In this document: positions 5,319 to 49,939 of the stretch, one piece after another
Layout: every line of letters begins with the position of its first letter
How positions within the stretch are numbered: position 1 is the stretch's first letter
Source of the DNA: Candidatus Latescibacterota bacterium
GTDB taxonomy: Bacteria > Latescibacterota > UBA2968 > UBA8231
Direction of reading: 5' to 3'
Assembly: GCA_965248265.1 (NCBI GenBank)
Contig: CBDFJF010000002.1
Span: 2,752,001 to 2,816,000 of the forward strand
Length of the DNA: 64,000 bases
Made by a program: the position numbers and the translations under genes
The notes under the pieces: generated by a model
What the model was told of the DNA's origin: nothing
Databases searched by the model: none
What the model saw: the letters and a program-made list of their open reading frames with translations, nothing else

Positions 5319-5427
5319 CGCATAGTGAGAGTGGTGTGTGCGGGGTGATGGTGTCGATGTTGATGAAACTGCCGAGATCAAAGTTGCCCGGGTGTCAGAT
5401 CCGTTCAGGGCATGGCATGCCGCGCAT
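5319..5427 (-). mobile_element. Internally deleted mini-derivative of the IS91-family element (oriIS tip plus terIS)
   Basis: Starts cgcatagtgag as at 48220. Ends cgggtgtcaga...gggcatggcatgccg..cgcat as at 49900-49938. Confidence 0.5.
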
Positions 5428-5599
5428 GATCTATAGCTTCAATTTTCGCTGGCCCGCCGCTATTCGAGAGTCACGCTGCTTGCGGCGGTTGCCTCGAGGT
5501 GTTCCCGTCGGAGCCCCGGGCCGTTCACTCCTCGCGAGACGCGCATAGCATCACATCTAAGCGGGACCAAGAGTCGCCCTGGCAGGTCATTGAGGACTG

Positions 5600-5628
5600 T
5601 TGACTTATTAAATTTAATTAGGTATTAT
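5600..5628 (+). promoter_or_regulatory. Sigma70 promoter of the TA operon with a palindromic operator; likely leaderless mRNA
   Basis: TTGACT-17 nt-TATTAT; palindrome ATTAAATTTAAT in the spacer; ATG at 5637 is only 8 nt downstream. Confidence 0.7.
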
Positions 5629-5636
5629 TATTAATA

Positions 5637-5909
5637 ATGTGGCGTATTCTTGAACATCATGGAATCGGCCGGTCCTCCCGAAAGCTCCCACCGCAGGTGC
5701 TCAAAAAATACGAGCTGTGGAAGGACATCGTGTTCCGCCACAGCCCCGGCAAGCTCCGCGAGTTTCCCGGGTTTCACGATGAGGCACTGAAGGGCGACCG
5801 AACCGGTCAGCGGTCTTCCCGGTTAAGCCTGCAATATCGAGTGATATATGCCGTTGAGCGTGCGGTCGTGACAGTCTATGTACTGGAGATCATTCCTCAT
5901 GATTACTGA
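5637..5909 (+). CDS. higB: Type II TA toxin, RelE/HigB-like mRNA interferase
   Basis: 90 aa; HDEALKGDRTGQRSSRLSLQYRVIY; lies upstream of an HTH gene. Confidence 0.75.
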   Translation: MWRILEHHGIGRSSRKLPPQVLKKYELWKDIVFRHSPGKLREFPGFHDEALKGDRTGQRSSRLSLQYRVIYAVERAVVTVYVLEIIPHDY

Positions 5910-5923
5910 TCTGGAGGTTAGTC

Positions 5924-6193
5924 ATGGCTAAGGACACATTCACCCCGGCGAAGAAGCGTGCGACACTCACCACAGGCGAGGTGATTCGTATGTTGCGTGA
6001 GTTGAAGGGGTGGACTCAGGAAGAACTGGCGCGCAGGTCGGGTGTGAACGCCAAGAACATCAGTCTGCTCGAGAACGATCGGGTAGACATCGGCAAGCGT
6101 CGGACCGAGCAACTTGCCAGGGCGTTCAAGGTGCACCCCGCGATCATCATGTTTCCTGAATACGAAGCGGAGCTGATAAGCAAGGCCGCTTAG
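5924..6193 (+). CDS. higA: XRE-family HTH antitoxin (HigA-like)
   Basis: IRMLRELKGWTQEELARRSGV...ISLLEN; GGAGG RBS; toxin-first gene order. Confidence 0.75.
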   Translation: MAKDTFTPAKKRATLTTGEVIRMLRELKGWTQEELARRSGVNAKNISLLENDRVDIGKRRTEQLARAFKVHPAIIMFPEYEAELISKAA

Positions 6194-6232
6194 AACATCC
6201 CTGTGACCACAGTTGCCTGCGAGCCAACACCA

Positions 6233-7402
6233 ATGAAAATCGAATCGATCGACTTCCAAATCCTGGAAAGCGACCCCGTTGAACCGGAGTGGCGTCCACT
6301 GCGGACGATGCGGGAGTATCCGGGGTCAACGAAGGTGCGGTTCGGGCATCGGCTGTACAGCGGGGACGGGATTCGCCTGGAGCCCAGGCCGGCCTACTCG
6401 TGTATGCTGCGGATCCGCACCGATACGAATCTCGAGACCATCGGATCCTTCTCCCACGGCTGGGGAAAAGAGGATCTTGAGTGGGGGGCGCGCACCTTCA
6501 AGGTCCAGTGGGAGCCGGAACTGGTCGGGCAGGATGCACTCAATCGCGAGTACGTGTGGCACAAAATGTGGATTGCCCGTCGGTACTTTCATATGACATC
6601 GACAGGTCCTCTCGCTTTGATCGACACGCTTTTGTGGGATCTGGCGGGGCTCCACGCCAACTTGCCTGTCCACAAGCTACTCGGTGGATTTCGTGATCGG
6701 GTCCCGGCCTATCTCACCGAGACGGGCATTCCTTACGAAGACACGCTGAAGTCGGCCCAACGGGCAGTGGACGAGGGGTACAAGGGGTTCAAAGACCACT
6801 CGATGTTGGGCGTCGAAACCAATCTCGCCCTCGCCAAGGATATTCGCGATCTGGTCGGCGACGAGATGGCTTTAATGCACGATCCTGTCCAGCAATACAG
6901 CGTTGAAGATGCCATCAAGGTATCACGGGGGTTGGAAGAGCTGGGTTACATATGGATCGAAGAGCCCCTGCAGGAGTTCGACATCAACGGGCTCAAGCGT
7001 CTTGCGGACGCGGTCGAGCTACCGGTGATGGCACTCGAATCGATACAGGGCAATCCCTACCTGGCCACGCCCTATCTCGTGGCTGGGGCGATCGATATCG
7101 TGCGCAATACCGGGCTCGGGATCACCGGAAAGATGAAGCTTTCAAATCTTGCAGAGATGTTCGGGCTGAATGTCCACGGTGGAGGGGCGCAGGTTGTGGC
7201 TGCGACTCGAAACGACGACTGGTGGGAAGTGGGGGCGTGGAAACCGCACGTCGCTGACCGGTCAATTTCGGCGGCATTTGCCGGCCTGATTCGGGACACC
7301 ACACAGGTCAGGGACGGCTATATGTACGTGCCACAGACGCCCGGGTTGGGACGAGAGATAGACTGGGAGCAGATTGAGGCCAGGACCATCATGACGATAT
7401 GA
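6233..7402 (+). CDS. Mandelate racemase/muconate lactonizing enzyme family, paralog of 331-1515
   Basis: Same motifs; starts MKIESIDF vs MKIEAIDF. Confidence 0.9.
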   Translation: MKIESIDFQILESDPVEPEWRPLRTMREYPGSTKVRFGHRLYSGDGIRLEPRPAYSCMLRIRTDTNLETIGSFSHGWGKEDLEWGARTFKVQWEPELVGQDALNREYVWHKMWIARRYFHMTSTGPLALIDTLLWDLAGLHANLPVHKLLGGFRDRVPAYLTETGIPYEDTLKSAQRAVDEGYKGFKDHSMLGVETNLALAKDIRDLVGDEMALMHDPVQQYSVEDAIKVSRGLEELGYIWIEEPLQEFDINGLKRLADAVELPVMALESIQGNPYLATPYLVAGAIDIVRNTGLGITGKMKLSNLAEMFGLNVHGGGAQVVAATRNDDWWEVGAWKPHVADRSISAAFAGLIRDTTQVRDGYMYVPQTPGLGREIDWEQIEARTIMTI

Positions 7403-7405
7403 AAT

Positions 7406-7498
7406 CTACAGTTCCTCAACCCCCACGAACCTGCCCGTGCCACGACTGCTGACAGCTGCCTCTACCAACGCAAGAGTGTGAATCGCATCAGCATAGTG
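7406..7498 (-). pseudogene. 3' stub of a Gfo/Idh/MocA gene, cut by oriIS
   Basis: Near-identical to 50241-50333. Confidence 0.85.
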
Positions 7499-7735
7499 AG
7501 GATAAACAGCCTAAAGAGATCGGTAGTCAGTCAAGCGGTTTTGGGCTTTTCGATTGCGTTGAGGGCCGTGCTTTTGCGTTGATCGTGGTGCGGTGAACGA
7601 TGGGGCAGCGGATAGGGTGCCCGGACCAGCGCTTGCGGGCGCAGCGGCAGCTGTCAGCGAGAGATGGGGACGCAGCGCTGTCTGGGGTGGGGCTCAGGCG
7701 GCAAAGTCGAACTCGTGTTGGGGATCGGGCCGTGC
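7491..7735 (-). mobile_element. IS91-family oriIS end (variant A) plus last codons of transposase
   Basis: Near-identical to 48221-48460 and 16301-16542; encodes ARPDPQHEFDFAA* on the minus strand. Confidence 0.85.
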
Positions 7736-7762
7736 GCGTGACGGCACCGCCCGAGCAGTGCT

Positions 7763-10700
7763 TTACCTCAAGAACAACAGCTTGCGTGTCTCCGTCTGCC
7801 CACCGGCCAGCAAGCGATACATGTACACGCCGCTGGCTAGATCGCGGCCGTGGGCATCGCGGCCGTCCCAGTGGACGGTGTAGGTGCCGGCTTGGTGGGG
7901 GCCCTCGACCAGGGCGGCTACTTTCTGGCCGGCCAGGTTGTAGAGGGCCAGGTCGACAGGGCCGCTGGTGGGCAGGCCAAAACGGATCACGGTGTCGCTG
8001 TTGAAGGGATTGGGATAATTCTGCGAGAGGGTATAGGTGGTGGGTAGGTCGGAGATACTCTCCGCCACCTCGACCACCGCTGTGGACGGTTTCGAGAGAT
8101 GCACCAGCCGGTATACAAAATCAACCATGACGGGAATAAATTGGGAAGCAAGTGATATGGGATAATGGCCGGCTCCTGGTAGAGGATATAGTTCATAGTG
8201 GACTTTTGCTGCCGCTATTTTATCTATCAAATCCAGGCTTGTCCGGTAGGGAACTATAGAATCCTCTGTACCGTGGATCAAAAGCGTTGGGGGGGTCCCC
8301 GGTTCGATGGGACCAGGATAAATAGGCGCATCAAAACCACCAGGATCACTGCGATCATACATCCCACCCCACAAGTCAATACAGGCTGCGGCTCCCACTG
8401 AAGCTGCATTCCCGTAGCACAAGTTGACGGCTATGGCACCCCCGGCCGAATCACCGGCAATGGTCATTTTGTTCGGGTCTACTCCATATTCGTCCTGGTT
8501 GGTTTCGAGCCAGTTCAGGGCGGTGAGTGCATCGGCCACGGCGGTATCAATTATGGCCGGATTGGCGCTGGGATTAGCCAATCTGTAGTTGATCGAAACG
8601 GCGACATAACCGCGTTGGGCGAACGCGGTGGCCATTTCCTGATATAGATCCGACTGTTTATCTCCACGACTGAATCCCCCTCCGTGGATCAACATGAGTG
8701 CAGGTCGGTTTACTTCCGTATCGCCCTCAGGTTCATATACGTCGAGCCGGAGTTGTTCCAGCTGACGGCTGGAACCTATGGCCTCGCCGAAAGGAAGATC
8801 TAGGGTGAGGTGCACCTCCGAGAACACGGGATCCACATACCTCAGGAGGCTGGTCCGGATATCGGCCCTGACGCGGACCTCTCTGCGCTCCCCCTGGGGG
8901 GTCGTGAGCACCAGGGTCGCCTCTTGCGGTCCGGCCGGCGCTTGTTGCCGATCGATGCGCACCTCGATGTATGCGGGGACGTTTGTGGTTTGCCCCTCAC
9001 GAGGGCTCACCGAAATCCAATCTTCGGAAGGCGGCTCAAGGGACCAGGAGAGGATACCGCTCCCGGCGTTGCGGAGGCTCAGAGACAGGCTGCTGATGGC
9101 CACGCCAAAATCCAGGTAGTCCTGGTCGACCGCCAGCACGGGATCGCCCACACCGGAGTCTACCAAGCGATTCAACAAGATTGAGACCGTGTTGGCGTCC
9201 TGATTCGTCACAGCCAGGTCAATGTCACCATCCCCATCGAAGTCAGCTCCGACAACCTCATATGGACCACGCCCCACAGCGTATTCCAGCTTCACACCGA
9301 AGGTCCCATCGCCGTTGTTGAGCAGCACGGACACTCTGCGGTTGACATGATCCGGCGCAACGAGGTCGTTGTCCCCATCATTGTCGAGATCCGCACTGAA
9401 AATGCCCCATCGTTCGGGGCCGTCATAGTCGACTCTAGGTGCAAAGCTGCCATCGCCATTGTTTAGCCATACCGATACAGCAGCAGAGCCAAAATGGCGC
9501 GCGGCTATGTCATGGTCTTCATCGCCATCGAAGTCCGCACTGAAAACATTCACTGGCCTATCCAACGCGTCGTACTCGACCTTGGGCGCAAAGGTCCCAT
9601 CACCATCGTTTAGGAGCACCGATACACCACCGCTGTGATTCGCCACAACCAAGTCGTTGTCCGTATCTCCATCGAGATCCGCACTAAAGACATCCAACGG
9701 AGCTTTCCCAGCGACGTAGTCGATGGGCGGTCCAAAGGTTCCATCGCCGTTGTTCAACAAGACAGAGACATTAGAGCCCGTTACCCTGGCGACGACGAGG
9801 TCGTGAATTCCATTCCCGTCGAAATCGGCACTGAATAGAGACACCGGAGCCTCGCCAGTTGCATAGTCGACTTTATCCGCAAAGGTCCCGTCGCCATTGT
9901 TCAGGAATACGGAGACGTTAGCATCGCTACCATTGGCGACTGCCAGGTCGTGATCGCCATCTGAGTCGAAATCCGCGCCGAAGACTGGATGAGAGCCTCT
10001 CCCAAGGGCATAGTCGACTTTGTCCGCAAAGGTCCCATCGCCACGGTTCATCAACACGGAGACCGTATTACTACCTGTGCTGGCGACGGCCAGGTCATGA
10101 TCACCATCGCCATCGAAATCCGCGGTTGAGAGTTCGAGGGGTACCCGTCCAACAGGATAGTCTGTCGGGAGTGCGAAAAGGGCCGGAACGAACGTAAAAC
10201 CTTTCTCGAGTTTACCCGTTTCTTGACTTCGATTGGTGATGGTGACATCCACGCTACCTAGAGCGTGCGGAGGGGTGGTAGCCTGGATTAAGAAAGGCGA
10301 CAGGCGACTTCTACGGGCGGCCTCAATACCCCCGAACGCAACCGTGGTACCCAGGTAGAAATTGCTCCCGCGTATTTCCACCTGCATGTCGCCCCGTTCC
10401 ACGCCGTGCGGGGGCGTAATCGAGGTCACGATGGGAGCGTCGTCCGGAGCGTGCACCAGGCGCAGATCGTCCAGGTAAAACGTGCCACTGACATTTCCGA
10501 GGAAGGAGATCCGTTCAAATCGATCGCCAAGGTCAAATTCGGATAGATCCATCTCGACCACCTGCCACTCCGTCCAGTTCAAGTCGATCAGCCCTTCCTG
10601 GAGAAGGTCAATGCTTCTTCCCGGTTGGACGGCGACCGCTAGGCGAGGCGAATCGGGAGGGACGACACTTTCCGGATGGAAGGCGAAACGCAGGGTCGTA

Positions 10701-10984
10701 AAGCCCAGAAGATCTCGACTATCAGAGGTCCGGAGCTGTAAGGTCCAACCCGAACTTCTTGCCTTCTCTACGCGCAATACGGCGGCGGTTTCACCTTCAA
10801 AGACGGGTCCTTCGGGAGAGATATCAACCAGTTCAATGCCCCCTAATGCTGTGGTGGTCCAGTCAGCGGCGATCTCGTCGCCCAGGATCACCAGATCCTC
10901 CTGGGTATGGGCCGGCGCATTCCAAGCGACGGCCAGTGCCAGCGCAGTATGCGGGATGATCATTTTCATGGTCGTTCGCCTCAC
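7763..10984 (-). CDS. Secreted multidomain protein: CBM-like, IPT/TIG, FG-GAP/VCBS repeats, BACON-like, HSL-type esterase, FlgD-Ig/CTD
   Basis: Signal peptide; repeated ADFDGDGDxDL; HGGG, GDSAGG, HGTED, GAGH; LSQNYPNPFN...SGVY. Confidence 0.85.
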   Translation of the reverse strand: MRRTTMKMIIPHTALALAVAWNAPAHTQEDLVILGDEIAADWTTTALGGIELVDISPEGPVFEGETAAVLRVEKARSSGWTLQLRTSDSRDLLGFTTLRFAFHPESVVPPDSPRLAVAVQPGRSIDLLQEGLIDLNWTEWQVVEMDLSEFDLGDRFERISFLGNVSGTFYLDDLRLVHAPDDAPIVTSITPPHGVERGDMQVEIRGSNFYLGTTVAFGGIEAARRSRLSPFLIQATTPPHALGSVDVTITNRSQETGKLEKGFTFVPALFALPTDYPVGRVPLELSTADFDGDGDHDLAVASTGSNTVSVLMNRGDGTFADKVDYALGRGSHPVFGADFDSDGDHDLAVANGSDANVSVFLNNGDGTFADKVDYATGEAPVSLFSADFDGNGIHDLVVARVTGSNVSVLLNNGDGTFGPPIDYVAGKAPLDVFSADLDGDTDNDLVVANHSGGVSVLLNDGDGTFAPKVEYDALDRPVNVFSADFDGDEDHDIAARHFGSAAVSVWLNNGDGSFAPRVDYDGPERWGIFSADLDNDGDNDLVAPDHVNRRVSVLLNNGDGTFGVKLEYAVGRGPYEVVGADFDGDGDIDLAVTNQDANTVSILLNRLVDSGVGDPVLAVDQDYLDFGVAISSLSLSLRNAGSGILSWSLEPPSEDWISVSPREGQTTNVPAYIEVRIDRQQAPAGPQEATLVLTTPQGERREVRVRADIRTSLLRYVDPVFSEVHLTLDLPFGEAIGSSRQLEQLRLDVYEPEGDTEVNRPALMLIHGGGFSRGDKQSDLYQEMATAFAQRGYVAVSINYRLANPSANPAIIDTAVADALTALNWLETNQDEYGVDPNKMTIAGDSAGGAIAVNLCYGNAASVGAAACIDLWGGMYDRSDPGGFDAPIYPGPIEPGTPPTLLIHGTEDSIVPYRTSLDLIDKIAAAKVHYELYPLPGAGHYPISLASQFIPVMVDFVYRLVHLSKPSTAVVEVAESISDLPTTYTLSQNYPNPFNSDTVIRFGLPTSGPVDLALYNLAGQKVAALVEGPHQAGTYTVHWDGRDAHGRDLASGVYMYRLLAGGQTETRKLLFLR

Positions 10985-11231
10985 CTCCAGTACAGCGGAA
11001 GATGGCTTCAGAATGTGGCTCGGTGCGCCAATGGAAGACCTACTCTAGGACCAGGATCAAGAGATCACCGTGAAGAATCGGGGATGTCAGCCTCGGTTGC
11101 CGTCTGACAATGGCTCCGTTTCGCCAGCGTTTCTCGCACGATGGGCTACCATGAACGCGACAGCAGCGATGGAAAACGAGATGAGACTGCCGCCGATTTC
11201 CGCGGACCCCCAAGGCTCTCGCAAGAACAAG

Positions 11232-11256
11232 CGACTAGTGAGGATAAACAGCATTA
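11232..11256 (-). mobile_element. oriIS tip (variant A) interrupted by an IS110 left end
   Basis: tagtgaggataaacagcatta identical to 48224-48244, then diverges. Confidence 0.75.
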
Positions 11257-12579
11257 CATACTCTTAGGCGCAAACAAAGAGGGCTTCTCTTTCAGATATT
11301 CGGAGGTGTCCCATAAGACCCTCAAAGACGTGAGCACCACGTCTGCATCTGAAAAGGAGAAGCCCGTAAGAAATCTACTAAGATGACTTCGGCTGTCCAA
11401 CTCGATCAGGTCCTCGATATCTGTGTCGATGTCAGCAAGAGCAAACTCAATGTCTACTTCGAGATGGGCGATCAGACCGTCGATGACGAGTGGCCCAATA
11501 CGACCCGGCAGATCGAGAAGAAGCTGCGAGCCTGTGGGCGCTTGGCGAGAGAGCACGGCTTCAAATCACTGCGAGTCATCTGCGAGCCTTCAGGCGGATA
11601 CCAGGACAAGCTGTTGCGCACAGCACGACGACTCGGTCACCTGACGGCCTACGTCAACGGCGAGGCGGTTGCCAAATTTCGTGTCGTCGAGACCAATGAC
11701 GGCGGCAAGACGGATCTCAAAGACCCGCACATCATCAATACGCTGGCGCGGCTCAATAAAGTCCTCCGGCATCGAGATCTACCTGAAGAGTATGAGCTGC
11801 TGCGCAAATGCGGCGTCCTCTATGAGAGGGCAGACCGAGCTCTCATGGCGGTGCGCTGCCGACTGCACCGCGTGCTGATGGAGCTGTATTGCGACTTCTC
11901 CTTCACCAAGAGCTTTCTCTACAGCACCTCGGGGCGCGCCTTGATCAGCAGGGGAGCCTTCGGACGAGGCCAGGCACAGGCCTTGAAGGCCTCCGCTAAA
12001 GCCTCCTTCGCGCTCACTCATCGCAGTCGGCACTTGTCCCTGGAGATTCGCTTCGTCATGGAGCGCGTCAACCTCCTCATCGAGCAGATCGTGCAACTCG
12101 ACGAACACCTGCAAGATCTCATGACCGAACAGCAGAGCCTTCTGCGGTCCGTCCCAGGTCTCGGGCCGTGTGGGCACCGACCATCCTGGCCGAGATCCTG
12201 CCTGTGTTTCATCCCGAGGATCAGCATGGCGCTCGCAAGTTCGTCGCCACCGCTGGCCTCGACGTCAAGCAGTTCGACAGTGGCGATGTGGAGGGTCGCG
12301 GCAGAATGTCCAAGCGCGGCAGCCGCTACCTGCGCACCGCCGTCATGCAGGCCTCAGAGATCGCCGTCTTCAAGAGTCACGACCCGCTCTTCACCCAGGT
12401 CTATCAGCGACACATTGATCGCGGCAAGCACCACCTCGTCGCTCTCACCCACGTCGCCAACAAGATGCTCCACGTCGTCTTCAGTGTCCTCAAGAACAAC
12501 CGTCCCTACACACCTATCCTCAACTGAACGGAGACCAGATATTTGCCCACGACTGGTGTTGACATGTTACCGCTTGTCT
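11257..12579 (+). mobile_element. Chimeric, frameshifted IS110-family element
   Basis: N-terminal DEDD domain (CVDVSK, CEPSG, KTDLKD) of one IS110 is fused near 11945 to a 3' half homologous to 34795-35370. Frameshift near 12168. Long imperfect inverted repeat 11281-11365 in the leader. Right end TTGACA-13 nt-CT ends at 12579. Confidence 0.85.
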
Positions 12580-12998
12580 ATACGTCCGGGCAGGACAGTA
12601 ACAGAGCGAGGTTGGTGATCGTGCGAGACAACAAGATGAGGTAGCGTGTGCGAGCAGGCATTGTCGTCTTCCTTTCGACCTGATTGATGCGATTCCGCCG
12701 TCGCCTGGCGCGCACTCAATGCAATGGTGCTCTTTCGCGCGCCAAGCGCTCTGCCGAAAAGCATGCAACCAGCAGAAACTAAACAGAAAACTATGGAACG
12801 AATAGTGGGGTTGGCTCTTAGACGCGCAGCAAAGGCTACGGCGGAGACTTGCCCGACGATCTGCCTCCGAAGCCGCATGTGGGTCCGGATCCGATGATCG
12901 TACGGCCTGTGCGAGTGAATCCGCCTTGACACAGTGCCCATAATGGTCCTTCATAGTGTAGTCGGTGCGAATGTTTCCCGAACGAGGGTTTTCCGACC

Positions 12999-15344: not shown

Positions 15345-16300
15345 CTCACCTGCCGCCAATCGAGTCTTGGTGCTATGCCAGTCCTGAGCTCCGTGGCACC
15401 GGCACACTGGTAGATGTCGGGTTGTTCGCGGAAGCTCTCATCTACTATGACCAGCTTCTTGTAAACCCCACGACACAGCCGCAATTTGCGGCTCTCCTTG
15501 AATGGGCGCAGAACCAGTCTTCGCTCGACAAGCTGCTTGGTTTGGCCAAGGACGGTGTAATCAAGATTTACGACTACTCATTTGCCACCTCCGCAGTGCA
15601 ACAAGGTGCCAGCTATGCGATCATGAATATTCAGGATGAAGTCCAGGCTCAACCCAATACGTTTGACCGTCGATTCTTGTATCATGACTCGGTTGAGGCG
15701 CTCTTCCCAAAGGCACGGCACCGCAGAAAAATCTATGAGGCGTTTCATGGAATTCGATAGAGGCTAAGGCCAATGATTTTGGTGAAGCCGTGGAAAACGC
15801 GGGCCGTGACTACTATGACGAACGTCGGTGTGCCCTGATCGTCCAGGCTCTGGTCGATGTGGTGTATCGCGACAAGCAACTGGGGGCACCACCTCTCGTC
15901 GAGGCAACTTTGTCGCGCACCGAAGGCAGCACCCAACACAGCATAACTTGGAACGTGAATTTCAAATGGCTATCCGAGAAACTCGGGGCCAATCTGAATT
16001 TTCACTCTTCTACGCCCCTGACTGCTGGAGCGGTGGCCAATCGCCTTATTTGGTCCGCTGCGCAATTGGACTGTGACCTCTACTTACCATCTCCGATGAG
16101 TAGCCTTGTCGGCGACAAGCTCTACGAAACGTCATTAAGGGCTGACAAGACTGACACGGTTATTCAATCCCTCCAGGAGGCAGTTGAGTTTCCTGATATT
16201 CGGACGCTCGTGAATACCGGACAACTCTCCCTTGATGAAGTTCTGGAGATTAGAACGAAGTCTAAGAGGTTCCGTGCCTGGTTACAGCAGGAGTCGGAGG
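15345..16300 (+). pseudogene. Hypothetical gene, 5'-truncated, frameshifted near 15755 and 3'-truncated by oriIS
   Basis: Consecutive ORFs 15422-15760 and 15790-16332, lower GC; the second reads into oriIS at 16301. Confidence 0.55.
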
Positions 16301-37662: not shown

Positions 37663-37682
37663 GGTGCGAGAATTTAGGACGA

Positions 37683-39368: not shown

Positions 39369-39597
39369 TTTATTAATTCTCCCGATTACGTTGGTTGGTT
39401 TCTCCCCGCGTATAGAAAGCTGCTCACTATCCCTGGGTGCACGACACAAAAATCGAGGCAAGTATGAATAGCTTGGTTTTCTGTTCGGTTTCGTGTCGTA
39501 GCCATCAACCTGGCGCCCCCACGACCTTGGTCGTGGGACGCAATGGTCAGTCAGCTATATACAAAAGCCGTAATCCCACCCCCACCGTCCCTTGCCA

Positions 39598-41409: not shown

Positions 41410-41875
41410 TCTCCTTTCGCCGCTACCAGTTTTACCGATTTCCAGATGCCGCCGTAATTGGTGCGGTCGCGTACGCGCACTGTGAGGATATTGCTCTCGC
41501 CGATCTTCACTGCATCCCCGAGCGGGATCTCGAAGCGCTTATCCCAGCCAATGTCACCGATGACATGCTCGCCGATCTGCCGGCCGTTCAGGTAGACCCA
41601 GGCAGATTCATCGACGGCGCCGAACGAAAGCGAAAGGTCCCGCCCCTTTGTTGCCGCCGGCATTTCGAACTCGACGCGATACCAGGCAATGCCGTCGTAC
41701 TGATGACCCTGCGGCTCTCACCACTCGCCGATCTTGATCGGCTGCCACTGCGTCTTATCGACAAAGACGCCGCCCCAGTCCTGCTGCCGCCCTTGATCGT
41801 TGAAGTCAGGCCGGAAGATCCAGACTTTCGGCAGATCGGCAATAAAATCGTGCGTCGCCCATAGCTCCGCGAAGA
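41406..41875 (-). pseudogene. C-terminal GH2-type sugar-binding domain fragment, cut by oriIS
   Basis: LPKVWIFRPD...GEW*EPQG..YDGIAWYR..FGAVDESAWVYLNG; internal TGA. Confidence 0.7.
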
Positions 41876-42236
41876 AGGATAAGAACGATAAGGGCCCATT
41901 ATCGGTGGTCAATATCTATTCGGGGGCTGTGTCGAATGAAAATCTGAACTTTTTGATGGATGGGGGATGGTTACATTGGCTTATGGGGGCTTGTTTTGGC
42001 GTGGATTCAGGCCCCGACTTGGTTTCGATGGCTGTTACAGACCCGCAAGGTCGATTCAGGCGCATCGATCCCATCGGATCAGACGGCGTAATCGAACTCA
42101 GACTGCTGGGAAAGCCTTGCCGGTGCGATGGGTGGAGGGCGAGCCGGCAGACCGACATCCTCGAGGTAAGACCGAATCGAAGCGGGATCCGTCAGGGCGG
42201 CAACGATCCTCATTTGCCCACCGCAGTCGCACTCAG
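41876..42236 (-). mobile_element. IS91-family oriIS end (variant E) plus transposase C-terminal remnant
   Basis: CGGQMRIVAALTDPASIRSYLEDVGLPARPPPIAPARLSQQSEFDYAV*. Confidence 0.8.
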
Positions 42237-42414
42237 AAGAGGAGGATCGTCACCATGGCTACCACGTACCCCTCAACCTCCGATCCTGGACTCACGATAA
42301 TAGCCGTTATAACATCTATCCATATGGGAGTAGATCGCACATGACCTGTATCAGCTGCACAAGCCAAACGGCGCCATCCCCATCGACGACACCATGCGGG
42401 CGATGCACCATGCC

Positions 42415-42546
42415 GTTACGCATCATCGACGCCGACCAGGTCTCCTTCGCACTGAAAACACCCTGGTCAGATGGCACCACCCACCTCCTGCTCTCGCCCT
42501 TCGAACTGCTCGAAAAACTGGCCGCCCTCTTGCCGCCACCACGCCC
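42415..42546 (+). mobile_element. Inverted internal IS91 transposase scrap
   Basis: LRIIDADQVSFALKTPWSDGTTHLLLSPFELLEKLAALLPPPR, homologous to part of the 48380-49879 protein. Confidence 0.8.
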
Positions 42547-42674
42547 TTCCTACATGGAGAGCTGGCCGGGCTGCGAGCCCTCCCAGGAGCTGCGGGCACG
42601 GGTGGCGGATGACGAGGCGAGAGCGCGCCTGCTGCGTGAACCGTACTATCATTGACCAAACAGAGGCTGTTTCC

Positions 42675-43826
42675 ATGACCGACACCACCGCAGACGAACC
42701 TGCAGAGAAACCGTACCGCGCACCCGCTTTTGCCGATGCGCTGCCCGAGCTCGACGCGCCTGGAGCCACGCCCGAGAGGCTGGCTTTTCTCGAGGAGCAC
42801 GGCTTTCTCATTCTCACTGATTTCGTTGGCAGTCCGTGGATCGAGAGACTCCGCGAGGCCGGCCGCCGCGTCACCGAAGCCTGCGCGCCCCAGCACGGCT
42901 ACAGCAAGCTCGATTCCTCCAAGGGATACGTGCACCGCGCCAGGGATGACGAGCCGTCGGCCATCCGGGGCCTCGTTCATCCCGCCTTTGGCGAGCCGGT
43001 TTTTTCCGAGTTCCACGGCTCGGACGAGTTCCTCGGCTTCGTCGATTCCTGGTGCGGGCTGCAGCCCGAGGACACGGCCATGGGCGGCATGCTGCTGTGG
43101 TGCAACCCGCGCAAGAGCGAGATGGGACCCAGCTGGCACCGGGACACGACCTGGTGGGGTACGGGAAAACCCTACTTCTCTCAGAGCACCGAGAAAGAAG
43201 GTCCCGAGGCTTACTCCGAAGAAGCAGAGAGAAAACGCTGGGAGGAAATCCGCGCTGAAAACTCCAGGACCGTCTACGAGCGCAGCGGAGTGAGCCTGTT
43301 CCTCGCCCTCGTCGACGACGAGTGCCACGAGGTCATCCCGGGCAGCCACAACCGCTGGCGCACGCCGTTCGAGCACGACGTGCTCCTGCCCCAGGCCATG
43401 AAGGACCAGGGCGTGCCGCACACGCCGAGCTGGAACAAGAAGGACCCGCTGCCAAACCAGGTGGCCATCGGCCTCAAACCTGGGGAAGCCCTCATCCGCA
43501 TAGGCTCGAACATCCACACGGGGCACACGGTCCCCGAGCGCGAGCGCAACACCCTGAGCATCGGTTGGGGCAAGTGGCAGGGGCCGCCCGAAGAGCCGGC
43601 GGTGGCGGATGCGCGCATGGCGTGGCAGCTCGGCCCGGCCGTGCGGGACGCCCTGCCCTACGAGTGGATGAAAACGGCCTGGGACCGCTGGGCGGCGGGG
43701 CAGAAGCTGGGAGACACCCTCGAAGACCGGTATGCGGCCTTCGACATCCGCCAGATCAAAGCCGGCAACGTCGTGGGATGGCGAGGCGAGCTGGAGCGTC
43801 AGGCAGCGGCAGCCGGAGAAGCCTGA
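42675..43826 (+). CDS. PhyH-like dioxygenase
   Basis: FLEEHGFL, WHRD, VIPGSH, IHTG. Confidence 0.75.
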   Translation: MTDTTADEPAEKPYRAPAFADALPELDAPGATPERLAFLEEHGFLILTDFVGSPWIERLREAGRRVTEACAPQHGYSKLDSSKGYVHRARDDEPSAIRGLVHPAFGEPVFSEFHGSDEFLGFVDSWCGLQPEDTAMGGMLLWCNPRKSEMGPSWHRDTTWWGTGKPYFSQSTEKEGPEAYSEEAERKRWEEIRAENSRTVYERSGVSLFLALVDDECHEVIPGSHNRWRTPFEHDVLLPQAMKDQGVPHTPSWNKKDPLPNQVAIGLKPGEALIRIGSNIHTGHTVPERERNTLSIGWGKWQGPPEEPAVADARMAWQLGPAVRDALPYEWMKTAWDRWAAGQKLGDTLEDRYAAFDIRQIKAGNVVGWRGELERQAAAAGEA

Positions 43827-44040
43827 CAGCCCTTTCAGACCATCAGCGATCCTGCAGGTGGGTGATGGGACCGGTGTCCCCGAAACCGTGGGCCATGGCG
43901 CGCTCTAGCATGGCCCGTCGGCGGGGACCCGCTGTGTGGGTGAGGTTGTCGCTGTAGAACCGGCCCCAGGCTTTCGTGTCGCCTTCCAAGAACCCGATCA
44001 CCCAGTCGTAGTACTCGGAGCTCTGCTCTCTCGTCGTGTA

Positions 44041-44482
44041 CGTATAGGACACGTATAGGACCGATAAGGGGCAATATCATTTGTCTATGACAGCAGAGGT
44101 GGAGTGTCGAGAGGGATTGTGAGCCAGGCGCAGCGGAGCGGATTGGTGCAGCGAGCGATGGGAGTGGATTGGCGCCTGTCGAACGGATCACGGATGCTGG
44201 TGTGCCCTTTTCGGGCCTCAACAGTGCACTGGTGGGCGCACCGGTCCGTTCGGATCAGGCCAGTCGTGTTCGATCAGGCTGCCAAATCGAACTCGGGTTG
44301 CGGGTCACGTCGTGGTGGCGCGATGGGTGGCGGCCGCGCCGGCAGGCCGACGCCTTCCAGGTAGGACCGGATCGAGGCGGGCTCGGTCAGGGCGGCTACG
44401 ATTTTCATGTGCCCGCCGCAGTCGGGGCATTCGCTGATATCGATCTGGAACACGCGCGCTAGCAGTTGACACCAGGACAGGG
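44041..44482 (-). mobile_element. IS91-family oriIS end (variant D, duplicated tip) plus transposase C-terminal remnant
   Basis: LLARVFQIDISECPDCGGHMKIVAALTEP...PQPEFDLAA*; cgtataggac twice at 44041 and 44052. Confidence 0.85.
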
Positions 44483-44839
44483 AGTGGTCATTTACGACCT
44501 GCAAGGCGGGCAATATTTACGCCGATGGCCACCTCGAGATAGCTGATCAGGATCGACTATACGAAGGGGGGTTTAGAGGATCGTACGTCGGATACGACGG
44601 TCCGGAAAGTTATGTGTGGGTACCGTTTTTTGGGCCTTAGTTAACAGGCGCCGAGTCTCACAAGATCGCGATCGCTATCGCCCGCGCTTAGGACCGGTAA
44701 CCTGCGGCAACGAATTCAGCTCCTCATAGTCAGTCAGTGCTATGGGAGGCTTTTTTGTGGCAAGATGCGGCTCTTTCCCCCGCACTAACCGCCAGCATTG
44801 TCCGAAACAATTGCGACAATCATGGCAGACGGATTCGCG

Positions 44840-44905
44840 GAGATATTGATAGTCCAAAGTCACCTGGTCAAGGAGCCCTACCCCCCCTACAGTGTGGAAT
44901 TTTGG
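44840..44905. repeat. About 60-bp direct repeat, copy 1 (possible orphan IS110 right end)
   Basis: tatt.atag.ccaaagtcacc.ggtcaagg.gccctaccccc shared with 46893-46965. Confidence 0.6.
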
Positions 44906-45087
44906 TGGACTTTCAGACTGTTACAAGCGCGGATATTGACGAACAAGCGTGGACAGGAGGGAAGATAGGGAAATGGCGAAAAGCCTGGCCAAATAAGGCT
45001 TCATCGTAAGTGTTCGGTGTCAGGAGTCAAGTGCTCAGTCCAATCGGTCCAATCCGAGCGATGCGAACCGAGCAACTGAACTCCGGA

Positions 45088-46500
45088 CTATTCCTGCAAC
45101 CCCGCCAGGCGCATAAGTTTTCCCCCGCCGCGCAACAGGCTTACCTGCGCCCGCGACCCACCCGACGCTGCACTCCAAGTTCGCGACGTCGCGTTGAATA
45201 CCTCCAGCAGCTCCGGGCCGATTACCGTTGTGGTTATCGCCCGCGTGTAGTCCAGGTTTACCGCCAGTACATGGGTCGGGTTGTCGTTGGCACCGAAATA
45301 TCCCAAAAGGATGCCCCTCTCCCGTTTTGCGGACACCGGGGGATCCACAGTAAATTCAGCGTCGGCCGGTAGCCCGACCGCGCCAGAGGGGACGGCGCCC
45401 AGATGATACGCAGCCAGGGACGTCAGCGGTTGCACCTCCAGACCAACGGCAACAAACTCGGGGTGGATTTCTTGTAGGGCCTGGCCCAGCGGGGTCAGGG
45501 TGCCATTGACATTGACGACACCGCCCTCGAACAGCGGATCGGAAACAGGTATGTAAACGAACTGAAAGAGGCCTTGGCCGCCGTAGGCTAATGTGGTGTA
45601 GGCCAGGAATCTGCCCTCGGCACCGTTGGGTATGCGGTGGGTTGGAGCCACAGAGCAAGCCTGTACCACGTTGACGAAGGGGATCCCGCCGTATAATGCT
45701 GCCTCGCGCGCGAGCGCCAAATTCATAAAGTACGTATTGCCCGCATGCAGGTTTGCGCCTACTTCATCGATAGCCCCCTCCGTGTAGAGGTTGTAATGAT
45801 CGTAACTGATCAGGTCCGGCTTGACGACGTCGACGAACTGGCGGAGATACTCCCGGTAGGCGGTCTCCGTATCGTTTGGATGACCCGGCCCGGAGACGCC
45901 AAGCGCCATAGCACTGGCATACGTAGGGAACAGATTTATGAGGACCATGTGGTTGGGATCACGCTCACGGATGTGGGCCACCAACCTACCCAGAGCCGGG
46001 TTCTCGCCGCCCCAGATTTCGTCGGCTAGGTAATAGGCGTACATCGCCGGATGGTTCTTCACCCGCTCGATCATCGCATCGAGTCCCGCCCTCCGTGCCG
46101 GGTCATCCAAATAGCCGGGGATCGCCCCTTGGTCGCCGAGTTCTTGGGGAAAGAAAAGCGCACGGTGCCCCTGAGCGTGAGCAGCGTCGAGATCATCCTC
46201 ACCCTGGCACCAGACCAGGTTGAAGCCCTCATCATTTAGTCTTGCAGCGACCCCGGGCGTCATTAATCCGAATTGCCCTCCCGCCCCAGGGCCTTGGTAA
46301 TAGCCAAGGATGGGGTCACCGATCTCCCAATTGCTGCCCATGGGTCGCCCACGCGCGGCACCTGAGGCGGACATGTCCGATGTTGCGCATGCTACCGCTC
46401 CCAGCAGTATGAGGCCCAAGACCCTGTACAACCAAATTATGCCAGGGTGCCGAAGCTTAGATACTAATTCTTTATTGCTTATTGGCTTAATTTCACTCAT
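45088..46500 (-). CDS. Putative glycoside-hydrolase-like lipoprotein, paralog of 37998-39368
   Basis: AVAC; YYQGPG, LADE, INLFPTYAS, YDHY, LAYTTLAYGGQG. Confidence 0.65.
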   Translation of the reverse strand: MSEIKPISNKELVSKLRHPGIIWLYRVLGLILLGAVACATSDMSASGAARGRPMGSNWEIGDPILGYYQGPGAGGQFGLMTPGVAARLNDEGFNLVWCQGEDDLDAAHAQGHRALFFPQELGDQGAIPGYLDDPARRAGLDAMIERVKNHPAMYAYYLADEIWGGENPALGRLVAHIRERDPNHMVLINLFPTYASAMALGVSGPGHPNDTETAYREYLRQFVDVVKPDLISYDHYNLYTEGAIDEVGANLHAGNTYFMNLALAREAALYGGIPFVNVVQACSVAPTHRIPNGAEGRFLAYTTLAYGGQGLFQFVYIPVSDPLFEGGVVNVNGTLTPLGQALQEIHPEFVAVGLEVQPLTSLAAYHLGAVPSGAVGLPADAEFTVDPPVSAKRERGILLGYFGANDNPTHVLAVNLDYTRAITTTVIGPELLEVFNATSRTWSAASGGSRAQVSLLRGGGKLMRLAGLQE

Positions 46501-46892
46501 TCTTCTGATTTTCTTTCTTTGTTCTGCCTTGGCTCGGGGTTCAAGTGGAATACGGAATGGGACGCTTTCCTTTGAGGTGATACGACCCCCTGCAGTTGCT
46601 TGTCAAGTTATTTATTCTTTGGCCCGGCGAGCCCAGGGCTGCCAGCTTGGGCTTATGAGCAAACTCATTTGACGGGGACTTGTAGGCGCCGCCAAATGCC
46701 TTGACAAACTCGGCAAATTCACCCTCCGATATTTTTCAAATTCGATGCGAAGTTCCCGGTAGGTCATGACGAGCAATCCCCGCGACAAAATAAGCGTCGT
46801 TAACGCATCAAGACCGACAGCGGACTATGCTAGATTGGCATAACCATGCTATACCTGTGGACAATGACGACAGTCGTGGCGCCGGATGCGCA

Positions 46893-46965
46893 GAGGTATT
46901 AATAGACCAAAGTCACCCGGTCAAGGTGCCCTACCCCCTACCCCATCCAGCAGTGGGGAACTTTT
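46893..46965. repeat. About 60-bp direct repeat, copy 2
   Basis: See 44840-44905. Confidence 0.6.
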
Positions 46966-47197
46966 GAAAGAAACAAATGGGGCGTCAGGTGATGACCGTT
47001 GCCGTCCGTCAGGTAATAAATTGACGCACGCTACGAAGTAGGGGGTGGAAACCGGTGTGCACCTTTCCCAATCGGGGACCATGAACCTGCTCTCGCGTGC
47101 ATTGCTGACGTTGGCTGGCCTTTCCGGCGCCCTCGCTCCCGCGCAGCCCCAAAGTCCTGGCGACTTGGAACGGGAGGTCGCGGCTCTTCTCGCCGAG

Positions 47198-47538
47198 AGT
47201 ATAGGACGAATTAGTGGCGTTATGGTGAGTTTAGATCTGCACGAGGCCTGGTGTCGAGTGGATCTTGGGATCTTTCTGAACGGCGGAATGCGGGGTTGAG
47301 GCTTTAGACGGGCGTGCCGAAGAGGAGGAATCCACGGCTGAGATAGGTTTCTTACCGTTTTTGCCACCCGGATGATCAGTTGGGGCGCAACAAACCAAGC
47401 GCGCTGTGATCAGGCCGCGTATTCGAACTCAGACTGCTGATCGTGCCTTGCCGGAGCAATTGGCGGAGGCCTTGCTGGCAGGCCGACCCCCTCGAGGTAT
47501 GACCGAATCGAGGCGGGGTCGGTCAGCGCAGCAACAAT
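47198..47538 (-). mobile_element. IS91-family oriIS end (variant B) plus transposase C-terminal remnant
   Basis: IVAALTDPASIRSYLEGVGLPARPPPIAPARHDQQSEFEYAA*; truncates a signal-peptide ORF starting at 47081. Confidence 0.85.
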
Positions 47539-48155
47539 GTACCGGTGCGGCAATGGGTGCTGAGTCTGCCGTATGAGATCCGCTATCGCCTGGCCTGGGA
47601 CGGCGAGTTGGTCGGCGCCCTGCTGGGCGTTTTTCTGCGCGTCGTCTACGGCTGGTATCGACGTCAGGCACGAAAGCAGGGATACGAACACAGTCGCTGC
47701 GGCTCGGTGACGTTCGTGCAGTGATTCGGGTCATCTTTGAATCTCAATCCTCACGTCCATGTCCTCATGATCGACGGCGTCTACGGCAATGGCGAGGCGG
47801 GTCCGGAGTTCGTGGCCGCACCGACCCTTAGCGATGATGATGTGCAACAGATCGTCGAGACCACGGCGCGACGCGTTGTGCGCCTGCTGCAACGCCGTGG
47901 CCTGCTGGAAGAGGGCCATGTCGATCCGCTGTGGGAGCAGGAGCCCCTGCTGGCGATGATCACGGCGGCTTCGATCCAGGGCCAGGTGGCTACCGGCGAG
48001 CGCGCCGGTCAACCTGTGCGCCGACGCTTGCTCGATCCTCAAGAGGGCATCCGCACCGGCCCGCTGTGCTTCGCTTCGCGTGGATTCTCTTTGCATGCGG
48101 CCACCCGCGTGCCGGCCACCGACCGCACTCGCCTGGAAAGACTGTGCCGCTACGT
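47539..48155 (+). pseudogene. Inverted internal fragment of IS91 transposase with a stop codon
   Basis: VPVRQWVLSLPYEIRY...VQ*FGSSLNLNPHVH...RLERLCRYV. Confidence 0.88.
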
Positions 48156-48219
48156 TGGAGTCTCTCTTCTTGGCCAACAACCCTTTGCTGAGGGGAGCGC
48201 TGCCGTTGGATTTGGCGGG

Positions 48220-49939
48220 CGCATAGTGAGGATAAACAGCATTATCGGTAGTCAGTCAAGGTGTTTTGGGCTTTTTCGATTGCGTTGAGGGCCGTGCTTT
48301 TGCGTTGATCGTGGTGCGGTGAACGATGGGGCAGCGGATAGGGTGCCCGGATCAGCGCTTGCGGGCGCAGCGGCAGCTGTCAGCGAGAGATGGGGACGCA
48401 GCGCTGTCTGGGGTGGGGCTCAGGCGGCAAAGTCGAACTCGTGTTGGGATCGGGCCGTGCCGGAGCGATGGGCGGCGCGCGCGACGGCAGGCCGACACCC
48501 TCCAGGTAGCGCTGGATCGAGCCGGGCTCGGTGAGGGCGGCGACAATCCTCATGTGGCCGCCGCAAGCGGGGCACACGGTAACGTCTATTCGAAAAACTC
48601 TCCGGAGGAGGTCAGCCCAGGCCAGGCGGTGCCGGCGTTGGGCGGGGGTGGGCTCCGCAGTATGCGTACAGGGGTTCGCTTCGGGGGCCCCTTCCTTCGG
48701 GCTCGGTACGATCCGTGCCCGGTCGGCGGCGTTGGGTGCCAGGACGCCGTGATAGCGCACCAGGTTGAGGCGCCGCGGCGGTACCAGGGCGGCCAGTTTC
48801 TCAATCAATTCTTGCGGCGAGAGTTCAATTCGATAAGTGCCGTCGGACCAGACCGTTTTCAGGTCAAAGGCCACTCTCTCGGCATCCAGGATCTGCAGTC
48901 GGCCCGCTGCCAGCGGCGGTCGATTGACGTAGCGGCACAGCCTTTCCAGGCGGGTGCGATCGGCGGCCTGCACGCGGGTGGCCGCATGCAGGGAGAAACC
49001 GCGCGCGGCGAAGCACAACGGACCGGTGCGGATGCCCTGTTGGGGATCGAGCAGACGCCGGCGCACGGGCTGGCCGGCGCGCTCGCCGGTGGCTACCTGG
49101 CCCTGGATCGAAGCCGCCGTGATCGTGGCCAGCAGCGGCTCCTGCTCCATGAGCAGATCGGTATTGCTCTCTTCCAACAGGCCGCGCCGTTGCAGCAGGA
49201 GCACCACCCGTTGGGCCGTGGTCTCGACGATCTGTTGCACGTCGTCGTCGCTCAGTGGTGGCGCCGGCACGAATTCCGGACCGTCCTCGCCGTCGACGTA
49301 GACACTGTCGATCATGAGGACATGGTTGTGGGGATTGAGGTTTAAAGCAGAACCGAATCGCTGCACGAAGGTGACTGAGCCGCAGCGACTGTCTTCATAA
49401 CCCTGCTCCCGTGCCTGACGACGATACCAGCCGTAGACGACACGCAGGAAGACGGCCAGCACCGCCCCGACCAGCTCTTTGTCCCATGCCAGGCGATAGC
49501 GGATCTCGTACGGCAGGCTGAGCACCCACTGCCGCACCGGTACCTGAGGCAGGACCTCGTCGGTGAGTCGGGCGGCGGTGTCCGCCATCCGTCGTCCCAT
49601 ACAACTCGGGCAGAAGGAACGTCGTTGGCACGAGAACGCGACGACGCGATCCTTGCAGCAGTCCTTGCACCGCACCCGCAGAAACCCGTGAGCGAGAATT
49701 CCGCACCGGAGATAGGCGTGCAGCTCGTCCTCGACGTGGATCGGCAGCTGCCGATCCGAGGTGCGGGTGCGCTCGATGAAGGTCTCCATGTGCTCGGCCA
49801 GCACCTGGTAGAGGGGGTCTGTCTCGGGTGTGCGGGCAGGCTCGCCAGCGACGCAGACACATCTTCCCCGGTGTAACAACTGCTACTCGCAAAATGGCTC
49901 GGGTGTCAGAATTCTTCGGGCATGGCATGCCGCCGCATA
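48220..49939 (-). mobile_element. Near-complete IS91/ISCR-family rolling-circle element
   Basis: oriIS hairpin GATAA-N6-TTATC at left; palindromic ggcatggcatgcc terIS candidate at right; CGCATA at both boundaries; no terminal IRs. Confidence 0.85.
48380..49879 (-). CDS. IS91-family HUH transposase
   Basis: Zn-binding CG...C..C...SC..R.FCPSC, NPHNH (HUH), LCRYVNRP, RYHG, C-terminal CPACGG; start uncertain. Confidence 0.93.
   Translation of the reverse strand: MLHRGRCVCVAGEPARTPETDPLYQVLAEHMETFIERTRTSDRQLPIHVEDELHAYLRCGILAHGFLRVRCKDCCKDRVVAFSCQRRSFCPSCMGRRMADTAARLTDEVLPQVPVRQWVLSLPYEIRYRLAWDKELVGAVLAVFLRVVYGWYRRQAREQGYEDSRCGSVTFVQRFGSALNLNPHNHVLMIDSVYVDGEDGPEFVPAPPLSDDDVQQIVETTAQRVVLLLQRRGLLEESNTDLLMEQEPLLATITAASIQGQVATGERAGQPVRRRLLDPQQGIRTGPLCFAARGFSLHAATRVQAADRTRLERLCRYVNRPPLAAGRLQILDAERVAFDLKTVWSDGTYRIELSPQELIEKLAALVPPRRLNLVRYHGVLAPNAADRARIVPSPKEGAPEANPCTHTAEPTPAQRRHRLAWADLLRRVFRIDVTVCPACGGHMRIVAALTEPGSIQRYLEGVGLPSRAPPIAPARPDPNTSSTLPPEPHPRQRCVPISR

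Follow-up and report, generated by a model that had tools for sequence, protein, structure and literature searches.

The window analysed here is a 64,000-nt stretch of a Candidatus Latescibacterota genome (contig CBDFJF010000002.1, positions 2,752,001 to 2,816,000; G000:C2:2752001-2816000 in our numbering of genomes and contigs). The genome comprises 7.32 Mb in two contigs of 3.2 and 4.1 Mb, with a mean GC content of 0.596. Between an intact MR_MLE gene of the enolase superfamily on the left and an intact Gfo/Idh/MocA gene (Gfo) on the right lie 13 related termini, hereafter tips, which alternate with segments carrying other genes (cargo). As judged from their sequence, the tips are the oriIS ends of a distant element of the ISCR/IS91 family of rolling-circle transposons, with a Y2 HUH transposase, and the array as a whole is bracketed by a direct repeat that includes parts of the two flanking genes. 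The features are, in window positions:

6203-7402, plus strand: intact MR_MLE gene, the left target gene (Pfam MR_MLE_C, MR_MLE_N), its 3' part within repeat X
6902-7498, plus strand: direct repeat X, consisting of the 3' part of MR_MLE, the spacer, the last ~95 nt of Gfo and 8 nt identical to the tip start
7491-7735, plus strand: tip 1, a 245-nt remnant of subfamily A
7736-11231: segment S1 with the gene of a 1073-aa FG-GAP/esterase secreted protein (7763-10984, minus strand; Pfam)
11232-11256, plus strand: tip 2, first 25 nt only, interrupted by an IS110-family element
11257-12594, plus strand: IS110-family element (hybrid) in tip 2, transposase at 11383-12618 (Pfam DEDD_Tnp_IS110, tblastn)
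12595-16300: segment S2 with the gene of a 781-aa LVIVD-repeat protein (Pfam) and an open reading frame (ORF), 15790-16332, running into tip 3
16301-16542, plus strand: tip 3, a 242-nt remnant, 99.6% identical to the full copy at 48220
16543-17639, plus strand: segment S3 with one PhyH dioxygenase gene (16634-17551; Pfam)
17640-17677, minus strand: 38-nt IS110 end remnant abutting tip 4 (assigned by repeat family)
17678-17837, plus strand: tip 4, a ~160-nt remnant of subfamily D
17838-23526: segment S4 with zinc ADH-like, metallophosphoesterase-PQQ propeller, 150-aa and 513-aa genes (Pfam)
23527-23844, plus strand: tip 5, a 318-nt remnant of subfamily B
23845-25391, minus strand: segment S5 with a frameshifted phosphoesterase-like gene, GC 0.50, between two B tips that are 97.8% identical
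25392-25837, plus strand: tip 6, a remnant of at least 342 nt, subfamily B
25850-27163, minus strand: IS481-family insertion sequence (NCBIfam transpos_IS481)
28163-28320, plus strand: tip 7, a ~157-nt remnant of subfamily D between two genes
28321-34734: segment S7 with an 879-aa gene, a 516-aa gene and a GH42-like gene
34735-36278, minus strand: IS110-family element in the TAG of tip 8 (Pfam; NCBIfam IS110 RNA-guided transposase)
36279-36374, plus strand: tip 8, then an inverted transposase C-terminal fragment (36294-36374)
36577-37662, minus strand: segment S8 with a Gfo/Idh/MocA gene, which alone among the cargo was found again elsewhere at the same tip offset
37683-37809, plus strand: tip 9, a 127-nt remnant of subfamily C with a partial tip-like 8-mer just upstream
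41409-41873, minus strand: truncated gene cut by tip 10, residues 497-651 of a 651-aa protein remaining
41876-42229, plus strand: tip 10, a 354-nt remnant
42286-42312, minus strand: reverse-facing partial tip, then an inverted transposase fragment (42416-42607)
43849-44037, minus strand: truncated gene cut at tip 11, residues 270-332 of a 333-aa protein remaining, with an 11-nt partial tip between it and tip 11
44052-44481, plus strand: tip 11, a ~430-nt remnant of subfamily C
47198-47538, plus strand: tip 12, a 341-nt remnant of subfamily D
47539-48225, plus strand: inverted internal transposase fragment (aa 112-336), 96% identical to C2:1156932-1157548
48220-50007, minus strand: near-complete ISCR/IS91-family element with oriIS at 48220, tnpA at 48380-49879 and terIS, the opposite end, at ~50007
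50043-50336, plus strand: direct repeat X', a partial copy of X running unbroken into the native Gfo gene
50241-51347, minus strand: intact Gfo/Idh/MocA gene, the right target gene (Pfam)

An earlier reading by a model that saw only the letters and their ORFs (the sequence-only reading) had named 13 termini, and all of them are present from 7491 to 48220 and face one way. Their alignment gives a shared core, TAG..GATAA-N6-TTATCGGTAGTC, and bears out the roughly five sequence variants described. A subterminal palindrome, GATAA-N6-TTATC or, in one variant, GATA..TATC, can be read from the unfolded sequence of every tip. A strict IUPAC pattern derived from these termini matches the window ten times (nine plus, one minus at 42290-42310) against an expectation of 0.00 from 100 shuffles, and misses four plus-strand variants: tip 7491 has a 5-nt insertion, tips 44052 and 47198 one altered base each, and tip 11232 is interrupted after 25 nt. 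With an nhmmer profile, 12 plus and one minus tips are found in the window at E<=10; the single reverse-facing one, at 42286-42312, is a weak or partial copy. Tip spacing is 1-8 kb and the segments in between measure 1 to 6.4 kb. The sequence-only reading had missed the IS110-family elements in the tips, the IS481 element at 25850-27163, the inverted transposase fragments at 36294-36374, 42416-42607 and 47536-48225, and the flanking direct repeat.

That the tips are ISCR/IS91 oriIS ends, as the same reading had claimed, is supported by the domains of the transposase, its best model, its identity to plasmid-borne proteins, the position of the tip and its terminal motif. The window transposase, a 499-aa frame at 48383-49879 (tblastn), contains the Pfam domains Zn_Tnp_IS91 (aa 28-122) and Y2_Tnp (aa 167-383), and no helicase domain was found in it by Pfam. 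Among NCBIfam models it is matched best by ISCR clade Ia (E 9e-117, 390 bits, below the 925-bit cut-off), and transpos_IS91 scores 106 bits, below a cut-off of 125 bits; hence it is a distant member of the family. With ISCR-type transposases from enterobacterial plasmids, the protein shares 42.7% identity. The oriIS tip follows 160 nt after the stop codon of its gene, and the corresponding distance in a Sphingobium IS91 is given as 167 bp (PMC5737581). Read in the sense of the transposase, the terminus is ..GTCCTATAC in subfamilies C and D, matching ..TTCCTATACCC at the ISCR oriIS of plasmid NZ_MW295853.1, and ..CACTATGCG and ..CACTAAGCG in subfamilies A and B, a weaker match; in the same sense, the tips end in ..GGTCCTATACG or ..TTGTCCTATACT and the ISCR oriIS of the plasmid record in ..GAACTTCCTATACCC (also written ..CTTCCTATACCC). 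The terIS end, of which the genome has few copies, was placed at ~50007 by an alignment of four full-length elements, in which the two ends are unlike and terminal inverted repeats are absent: conservation is seen at the end downstream of tnpA, and the upstream end is common only within a subfamily.

Twelve of the 13 tips are remnants of ~25 to 430 nt, most of them retaining just ~130-430 nt next to oriIS, and one belongs to the near-complete transposase gene. In agreement with the reported retention of the transposase C-terminus at several tips and of one near-full gene, C-terminal pieces lie beside seven tips, and the transposase sequence beside tips comprises the last 24-70 codons only. Genome-wide, 43 of the 70 transposase fragments are C-terminal only, five N-terminal only and 17 internal, and five are full. 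The remnants at 7491 and 16301 stop at the identical nucleotide, followed by differing DNA, and two 214-nt remnants of a second array (C2:1134-1158 kb) likewise have a common end point before they continue into different DNA. For IS801 of Pseudomonas syringae, right-end products of 229, 360 and 679 nt are reported to make up 26% of events (PMC3189936). By analogy with these experiments, the remnants are probably for the most part 'miniatures' that arose by premature termination. The fixed lengths of the remnants, the 43:5 bias towards C-terminal fragments and the flank repeats all fit products of one-ended transposition, as far as sequence can tell.

The density of tips is a local property. 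The profile detects 84 tips in 7.32 Mb at E<=1, strongly clustered, and 12-13 tips in the window compare with ~0.7 per 64 kb genome-wide, so that an equal density throughout the genome, which the sequence-only reading had named as a refuting case, is rejected. On the replichore of the window, assigned by cumulative GC skew, tips elsewhere divide into 28 plus and 25 minus, and the co-orientation hence belongs to the arrays and not to the replichore. Contig C1 shows a hint of bias (1 plus and 8 minus at E<=1); once the arrays are set aside, the two orientations are about equally frequent overall. Uniqueness of the locus did not hold up, as further arrays occur in this genome and in a related genus. 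The second array in C2 has seven identical tips, all facing one way. In the relative G018, 29 of 29 transposase fragments between 3.62 and 3.76 Mb are on one strand, and 13 of 13 between 1.75 and 1.81 Mb are on the other. Y2 transposase matches were found in 18 of the 41 genomes searched, G000 counted.

The flanks of the array carry the footprint of an insertion. Repeats X and X' are 92-95% identical, the right copy with a 304-nt internal gap, and X' begins just beyond the terIS of the last element. MR_MLE and Gfo are 42.8 kb apart in the window, whereas their orthologues in G042 and at one G015 locus (copy b) are convergent direct neighbours, 46-54 nt apart, with 91% nt identity for MR_MLE and 84-85% nt for Gfo. 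In line with the earlier claim, the array genes are thus not syntenic with these relatives, and the array therefore represents accreted or imported DNA. The eight letters shared with the tip encode H-Y-A of Gfo in the right copy, where relatives have H-V-A; since the Gfo reading frame continues across the right copy, what stands at the end of the left copy is a 3' piece of Gfo truncated by tip 7491. The spacers of the relatives, which are unconserved, were unhelpful in tracing the native origin of this motif, and the Gfo frame settled it. At the left junction of the array, 8 of 8 nt are thus common to native target and tip, and at the junction of the second array a 6-nt tip-like motif is found 2 nt upstream. 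Of the five full-length copies in the genome, four have a flank repeat beyond terIS, in one case inverted.

At least five tips had been claimed to cut a gene. This was verified for 7491 (Gfo, last ~95 nt), 41876 and 44052, while for the genes at 16301 and 47198 no homologue was found, which includes ORF 15790-16332. The gene cut at 41876 is uninterrupted in the related metagenome contig L035, in which the left neighbour is not conserved. For all three verified genes, the second half is absent from the window.

Parts of the locus are shared with other genera. The MR_MLE protein is 93-94% identical on the amino acid level to its counterparts in G011, G015 and G042, compared to 83-84% for RpoB. 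Nearly the whole inter-tip segment with the PhyH gene (16572-17574) is 91% identical on the nucleotide level to G004:C817:934-1963, where it is preceded by tip-like ends and a gene of the 879-aa family, and the last 93 nt of the segment find a 95% match beside a transposase remnant in G018. In G016:C76, a contig that ends in an IS91 remnant, the phosphoesterase-PQQ gene has a counterpart with 82% nt identity. A DNA search of 36400-47197 in 46 genomes of the family gave matches of 66-81% only. The DNA comparison with relatives covered the window outside 27491-36399 and scored at most six candidates per genome, so that shared segments may be missed. The contrast between MR_MLE and RpoB and the shared segments indicate an exchange between genera, as far as such sequence comparisons can do so.

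At the level of the array, the locus is an accretion locus; a one-by-one mobilisation of cassettes in trans is not demonstrated. We read it, with a probability of about 50%, as a composite island that was built and moved by an ISCR/IS91-family rolling-circle element. An island of 43 kb suggests that an element of a known kind can gather and move genes on a large scale. In the mechanism that we prefer, which is unproven, cleavage and joining would be centred on oriIS ends. Rolling-circle copying from oriIS would stop early and yield miniatures, or read through terIS and copy flanking DNA, and the products would be rejoined to, or right beside, an oriIS end already in place or to a sequence mimicking its first 6-8 nt. 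Joining at oriIS ends would preserve the orientation, and the array would grow head to tail. Read-through from an upstream oriIS may then lift the whole array as a circle; as such a circle carries a piece of the neighbouring genes, it could be rescued by homologous recombination, leaving the flank duplication behind. We favour joining at oriIS because a perfect copy of the own first 10 nt lies within 30 nt upstream of three of 74 tips (at least 8 of 10 positions match in only 1 of 592 control windows), and because of the 8-nt identity at the left junction and the 6-nt motif of the second array. Adjacent tips often differ in subfamily, so that their order cannot be due solely to recombination between remnants. 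Later insertions of IS110 and IS481 and inversions would have blurred the picture of the array. A bolder version, tentative and in our view improbable as a whole, would make oriIS both the start and a preferred landing or termination site: products home there and build co-oriented, integrase-free cassette arrays of 40-140 kb, which are exchanged between Latescibacterota genera by read-through and recombination rescue.

Several observations weigh against the composite island and its proposed construction. Rolling-circle transposition should leave the donor in place, and no donor copy was found for 12 of the 13 units. The junctions between remnant and cargo are intergenic in 8 of 8 assessable cases, and those between cargo and the next tip in 6 of 9; in DNA with ~88% coding sequence, termination at random would disrupt genes much more frequently, and the pattern calls for selection or for termination at intergenic hairpins. 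In G011 and at the other G015 locus (copy a), MR_MLE has a different neighbour, and the ancestral adjacency of the two flanking genes therefore rests on two of the four loci with the 93-94% identical MR_MLE orthologue. Compared to its sister copies, the window transposase lacks ~180 nt including the native start codon, and activity would hence have to come from other copies. Outside the conserved tip, no consensus for a target tetranucleotide (CTTG/GTTC/GTCC) abutting oriIS was found in 74 aligned tips; GTCC or GTTC, which are known IS91-family target tetranucleotides (PMC13181058), are located 7-8 nt inside the tip in subfamilies C, D and E. Tandems of partial tips are rare (3 of 74), the 3.62-3.76 Mb array of G018 has ~10 tips one way and two opposite when tips are counted, and no circular junction was seen in the read data, which consist of short contigs only.

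Of the alternatives, a hotspot that formed in situ fares best, although we consider it unlikely. The genes would be residents among which a nearby element dropped short copies between genes in one orientation, deletions and inversions would have cut some of them, and no capture would be involved. The intergenic junctions are what this explanation predicts, and the inner ones also fit a plain insertion of miniatures, which the identical remnant end points mark as discrete insertion products. It would further account for cargo that has no copy with the same boundary elsewhere in 12 of 13 units, for the GC content of the segments (0.50 to 0.69, most near the genome mean), and for the 12 of 24 queried window genes, several of them outside the array, that have no paralogue at >=40% identity; most genomic fragments of IS801 have likewise been attributed to reorganisations (Bardaji 2011, PMC3189936). 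A resident origin is difficult to reconcile, however, with the adjacency of MR_MLE and Gfo in two relatives and the partial MR_MLE copy that still stands beside Gfo, with three truncated genes that have no second half in the window, and with the regular flank repeats at the full-length copies. Nor is there a genome-wide strand bias to drive the co-orientation, and the PhyH segment is 91% identical in another genus.

The sequence-only reading had proposed a stricter scheme, in which each unit of oriIS plus cargo was mobilised in trans and stacked singly, as in an integron but without integrase or attC. Any fragment containing ori801 is reported to be mobilisable in trans (PMC6354349), and a few units conform to the scheme: S5, with its low GC content, sits between two almost identical B tips, the Gfo cargo at 36608-37603 has the same tip offset as C2:2208443-2209438 (83% identity), and the PhyH segment stands beside tip-like ends in G004 and G018. 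Moreover, a tip is found within 3 kb of 10 of the 49 paralogues of window genes, the background being 5.2%. For the array in general, the scheme appears doubtful. In 12 of the 13 units, homology that is in register with other tips goes no further than the IS remnant, and a cargo at the same oriIS boundary elsewhere was found for one unit only, Gfo, a pair that at 83% identity is far older than the remnants with their 95-99.6% identity. Beside PhyH in G004, both the variant of the tip and the position of the junction are different, so this is not the same unit; most cargo paralogues share coding sequence only (77-82%), and no tips border a recent 1.78-kb duplicate (96.5%).

Near-identical pieces of the window are present in marine metagenome runs, one of which (X21) contains 91% of the sampled window words, and the organism is probably marine; seawater runs with small word shares were left out of account in naming a habitat. 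These data are short contigs of public runs, and the parts that they do not cover carry no evidential weight; alternative tip-to-tip joints in the short-contig graph are repeat-induced paths and uninformative on circles. An assembly artefact, in which the 130-430 nt repeats of the tips, where short-read contigs break and such alternative joints appear, had chained unrelated metagenome pieces together, is very improbable, as the whole genome assembled into only two contigs, the junctions at 41876 and 47198 are crossed by error-free X21 contigs (37732-41958 and 45814-47282), every tip has unique flanks, and the same architecture is found again in independent complete genomes.

The composite island resembles several known systems. 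The Toleman model of ISCR1 in complex class 1 integrons reportedly posits a read-through circle that is rescued by homologous recombination, with duplication of the 3'-conserved segment (3'-CS). The locus shares with ISCR1 a Y2 HUH transposase of the ISCR clade, an oriIS downstream of the gene that ends in ..TCCTATAC.., foreign genes abutting oriIS, and a composite bracketed by a partial duplication (3'-CS there, X/X' here). It differs in having 13 oriIS ends instead of one and a terIS, in its place in the chromosome of an environmental phylum, in its cargo of metabolic and secreted-protein genes rather than resistance genes, and in the lack of an integron. Helitrons follow the same HUH rolling-circle logic, capture genes by bypassing the terminator, and occur in many truncated or non-autonomous copies and in tandem arrangements; the present element has a bacterial host, different ends and no helicase domain (Pfam: Zn and Y2 only). 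With integrons the array has in common short, co-oriented recombination sites that separate one to a few genes, but the sites here are origin ends of the IS91 family with transposase remnants and not attC, no search for IntI or attC having been made.

The closest parallels come from IS801, for which ori fragments of fixed lengths generated by early termination and the recruitment of upstream DNA by read-through are described (PMC3189936, PMC6354349); more than 40 kb can be carried in this way, and the isoform CRR1 has no start codon (PMC6354349), resembling the window copy. The trans-mobilisable fragments are a further likeness. Up to eight ori801 are reported on one 131-kb plasmid (PMC3189936, PMC6354349), in contrast to ~13 oriIS ends in 43 kb, strictly co-oriented and chromosomal, and the end tetranucleotides GAAC/CAAG of IS801 are not evident here. 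In the IS91-sdpA cluster of Sphingobium herbicidovorans MH, IS91 copies lie among catabolic genes, an 11-kb circular intermediate was seen, and capture by one-ended transposition and duplication between IS91 copies has been proposed (PMC5737581). That cluster, by contrast, is on a plasmid and has few IS91 copies and no array of truncated, co-oriented ends. Miniatures, the capture of DNA by read-through and the mobilisation of origin fragments in trans have thus been published for IS801 and IS91, and flank duplication is likewise a published feature. What appears to be undescribed is how large and how strictly co-oriented the arrays are, that they recur across genera, that the flank duplication is regular, and that IS110 elements are aimed at the origin end; no earlier description of such arrays was found in the literature searched, subscription literature lying outside that search.

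ISCR/IS91 elements are known mainly as single copies beside resistance or virulence genes. In this environmental phylum, familiar chiefly through metagenome assemblies, large and strictly co-oriented arrays of their origin ends surround polysaccharide-related and redox genes, and the repeatable footprint of flank duplication points to the movement of blocks of tens of kilobases. If joining does take place at oriIS ends, it would constitute a simple gene-accretion mechanism for bacterial rolling-circle elements and an experimentally accessible parallel in bacteria to the capture of genes by Helitrons.

The oriIS tip is itself the target of another transposon. The conserved TAG of the tip contains, always at the same position, an IS110-family (RNA-guided) element, at 34735-36278, 17640-17677 and 11257-12594 in the window and also at C2:2703917-2705451 and C2:2724256-2725790, and its right end abuts a tip in 4 of 4 detected copies. 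Site-specific IS110-family elements such as IS1111-attC and IS4321/IS5075 likewise use a single fixed site within the terminus of another mobile element, the difference being that the target here is an ISCR/IS91 oriIS end. We know of no description of IS110 targeting such an end, a point for which no literature search was made. The element offers a ready natural case of an RNA-guided insertion sequence aimed at another transposon. The IS481 element, which lies just past the remnant of tip 6, has seven near-identical full-length copies elsewhere in the genome (99.8-100%), plus one partial copy, and has therefore been active recently.

Just upstream of the window, a neighbouring array at C2:2686000-2730000 shares IS110 copies and tip subfamilies with the window array and holds diverged copies of its GH42-like and 470-aa genes; ~115 kb in all are shaped by these elements. 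Left of the window array, a second MR_MLE paralogue (67% aa identity; 331-1515, minus strand) lies 4.7 kb upstream of the gene at 6203-7402 in opposite orientation, and a terIS-like stretch of 49 nt is found at 5379-5427, near the start of the interval given in the sequence-only reading. Two candidate end signals were discarded: a terIS copy left of the flank repeat of the second array was a short resemblance unsupported by BLAST, and a ..GTG end consensus common to terIS, the end of the 242-nt remnant and X' failed in the second array.

The 879-aa (28565-31204) and 516-aa (31518-33068) genes have no Pfam or NCBIfam match, and their families comprise 11 and 6 paralogues at >=40% identity. Paralogues were considered as donors of cargo and rejected, with homology in the 879-aa family confined to the coding sequence (77-82%). 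One copy of the 516-aa gene, at C2:1895880-1897653, is 96.5% identical on the DNA level; the duplicated stretch, 31389-33157, was tried as a tip-bounded unit and rejected, as no recognisable tips were found at its borders. The tip-cut genes at 7491, 41876, 44052 and C2:1150257 are all on the minus strand and retain their 3' part, which may be a coincidence (~1 in 8) or a mechanistic clue. Between the 879-aa-family gene and the PhyH segment of G004, at positions 719-848 of the contig (L118, G004:C817), two inverted tip-like sequences ~85 nt apart form a palindromic, MITE-like unit of ~130 nt.

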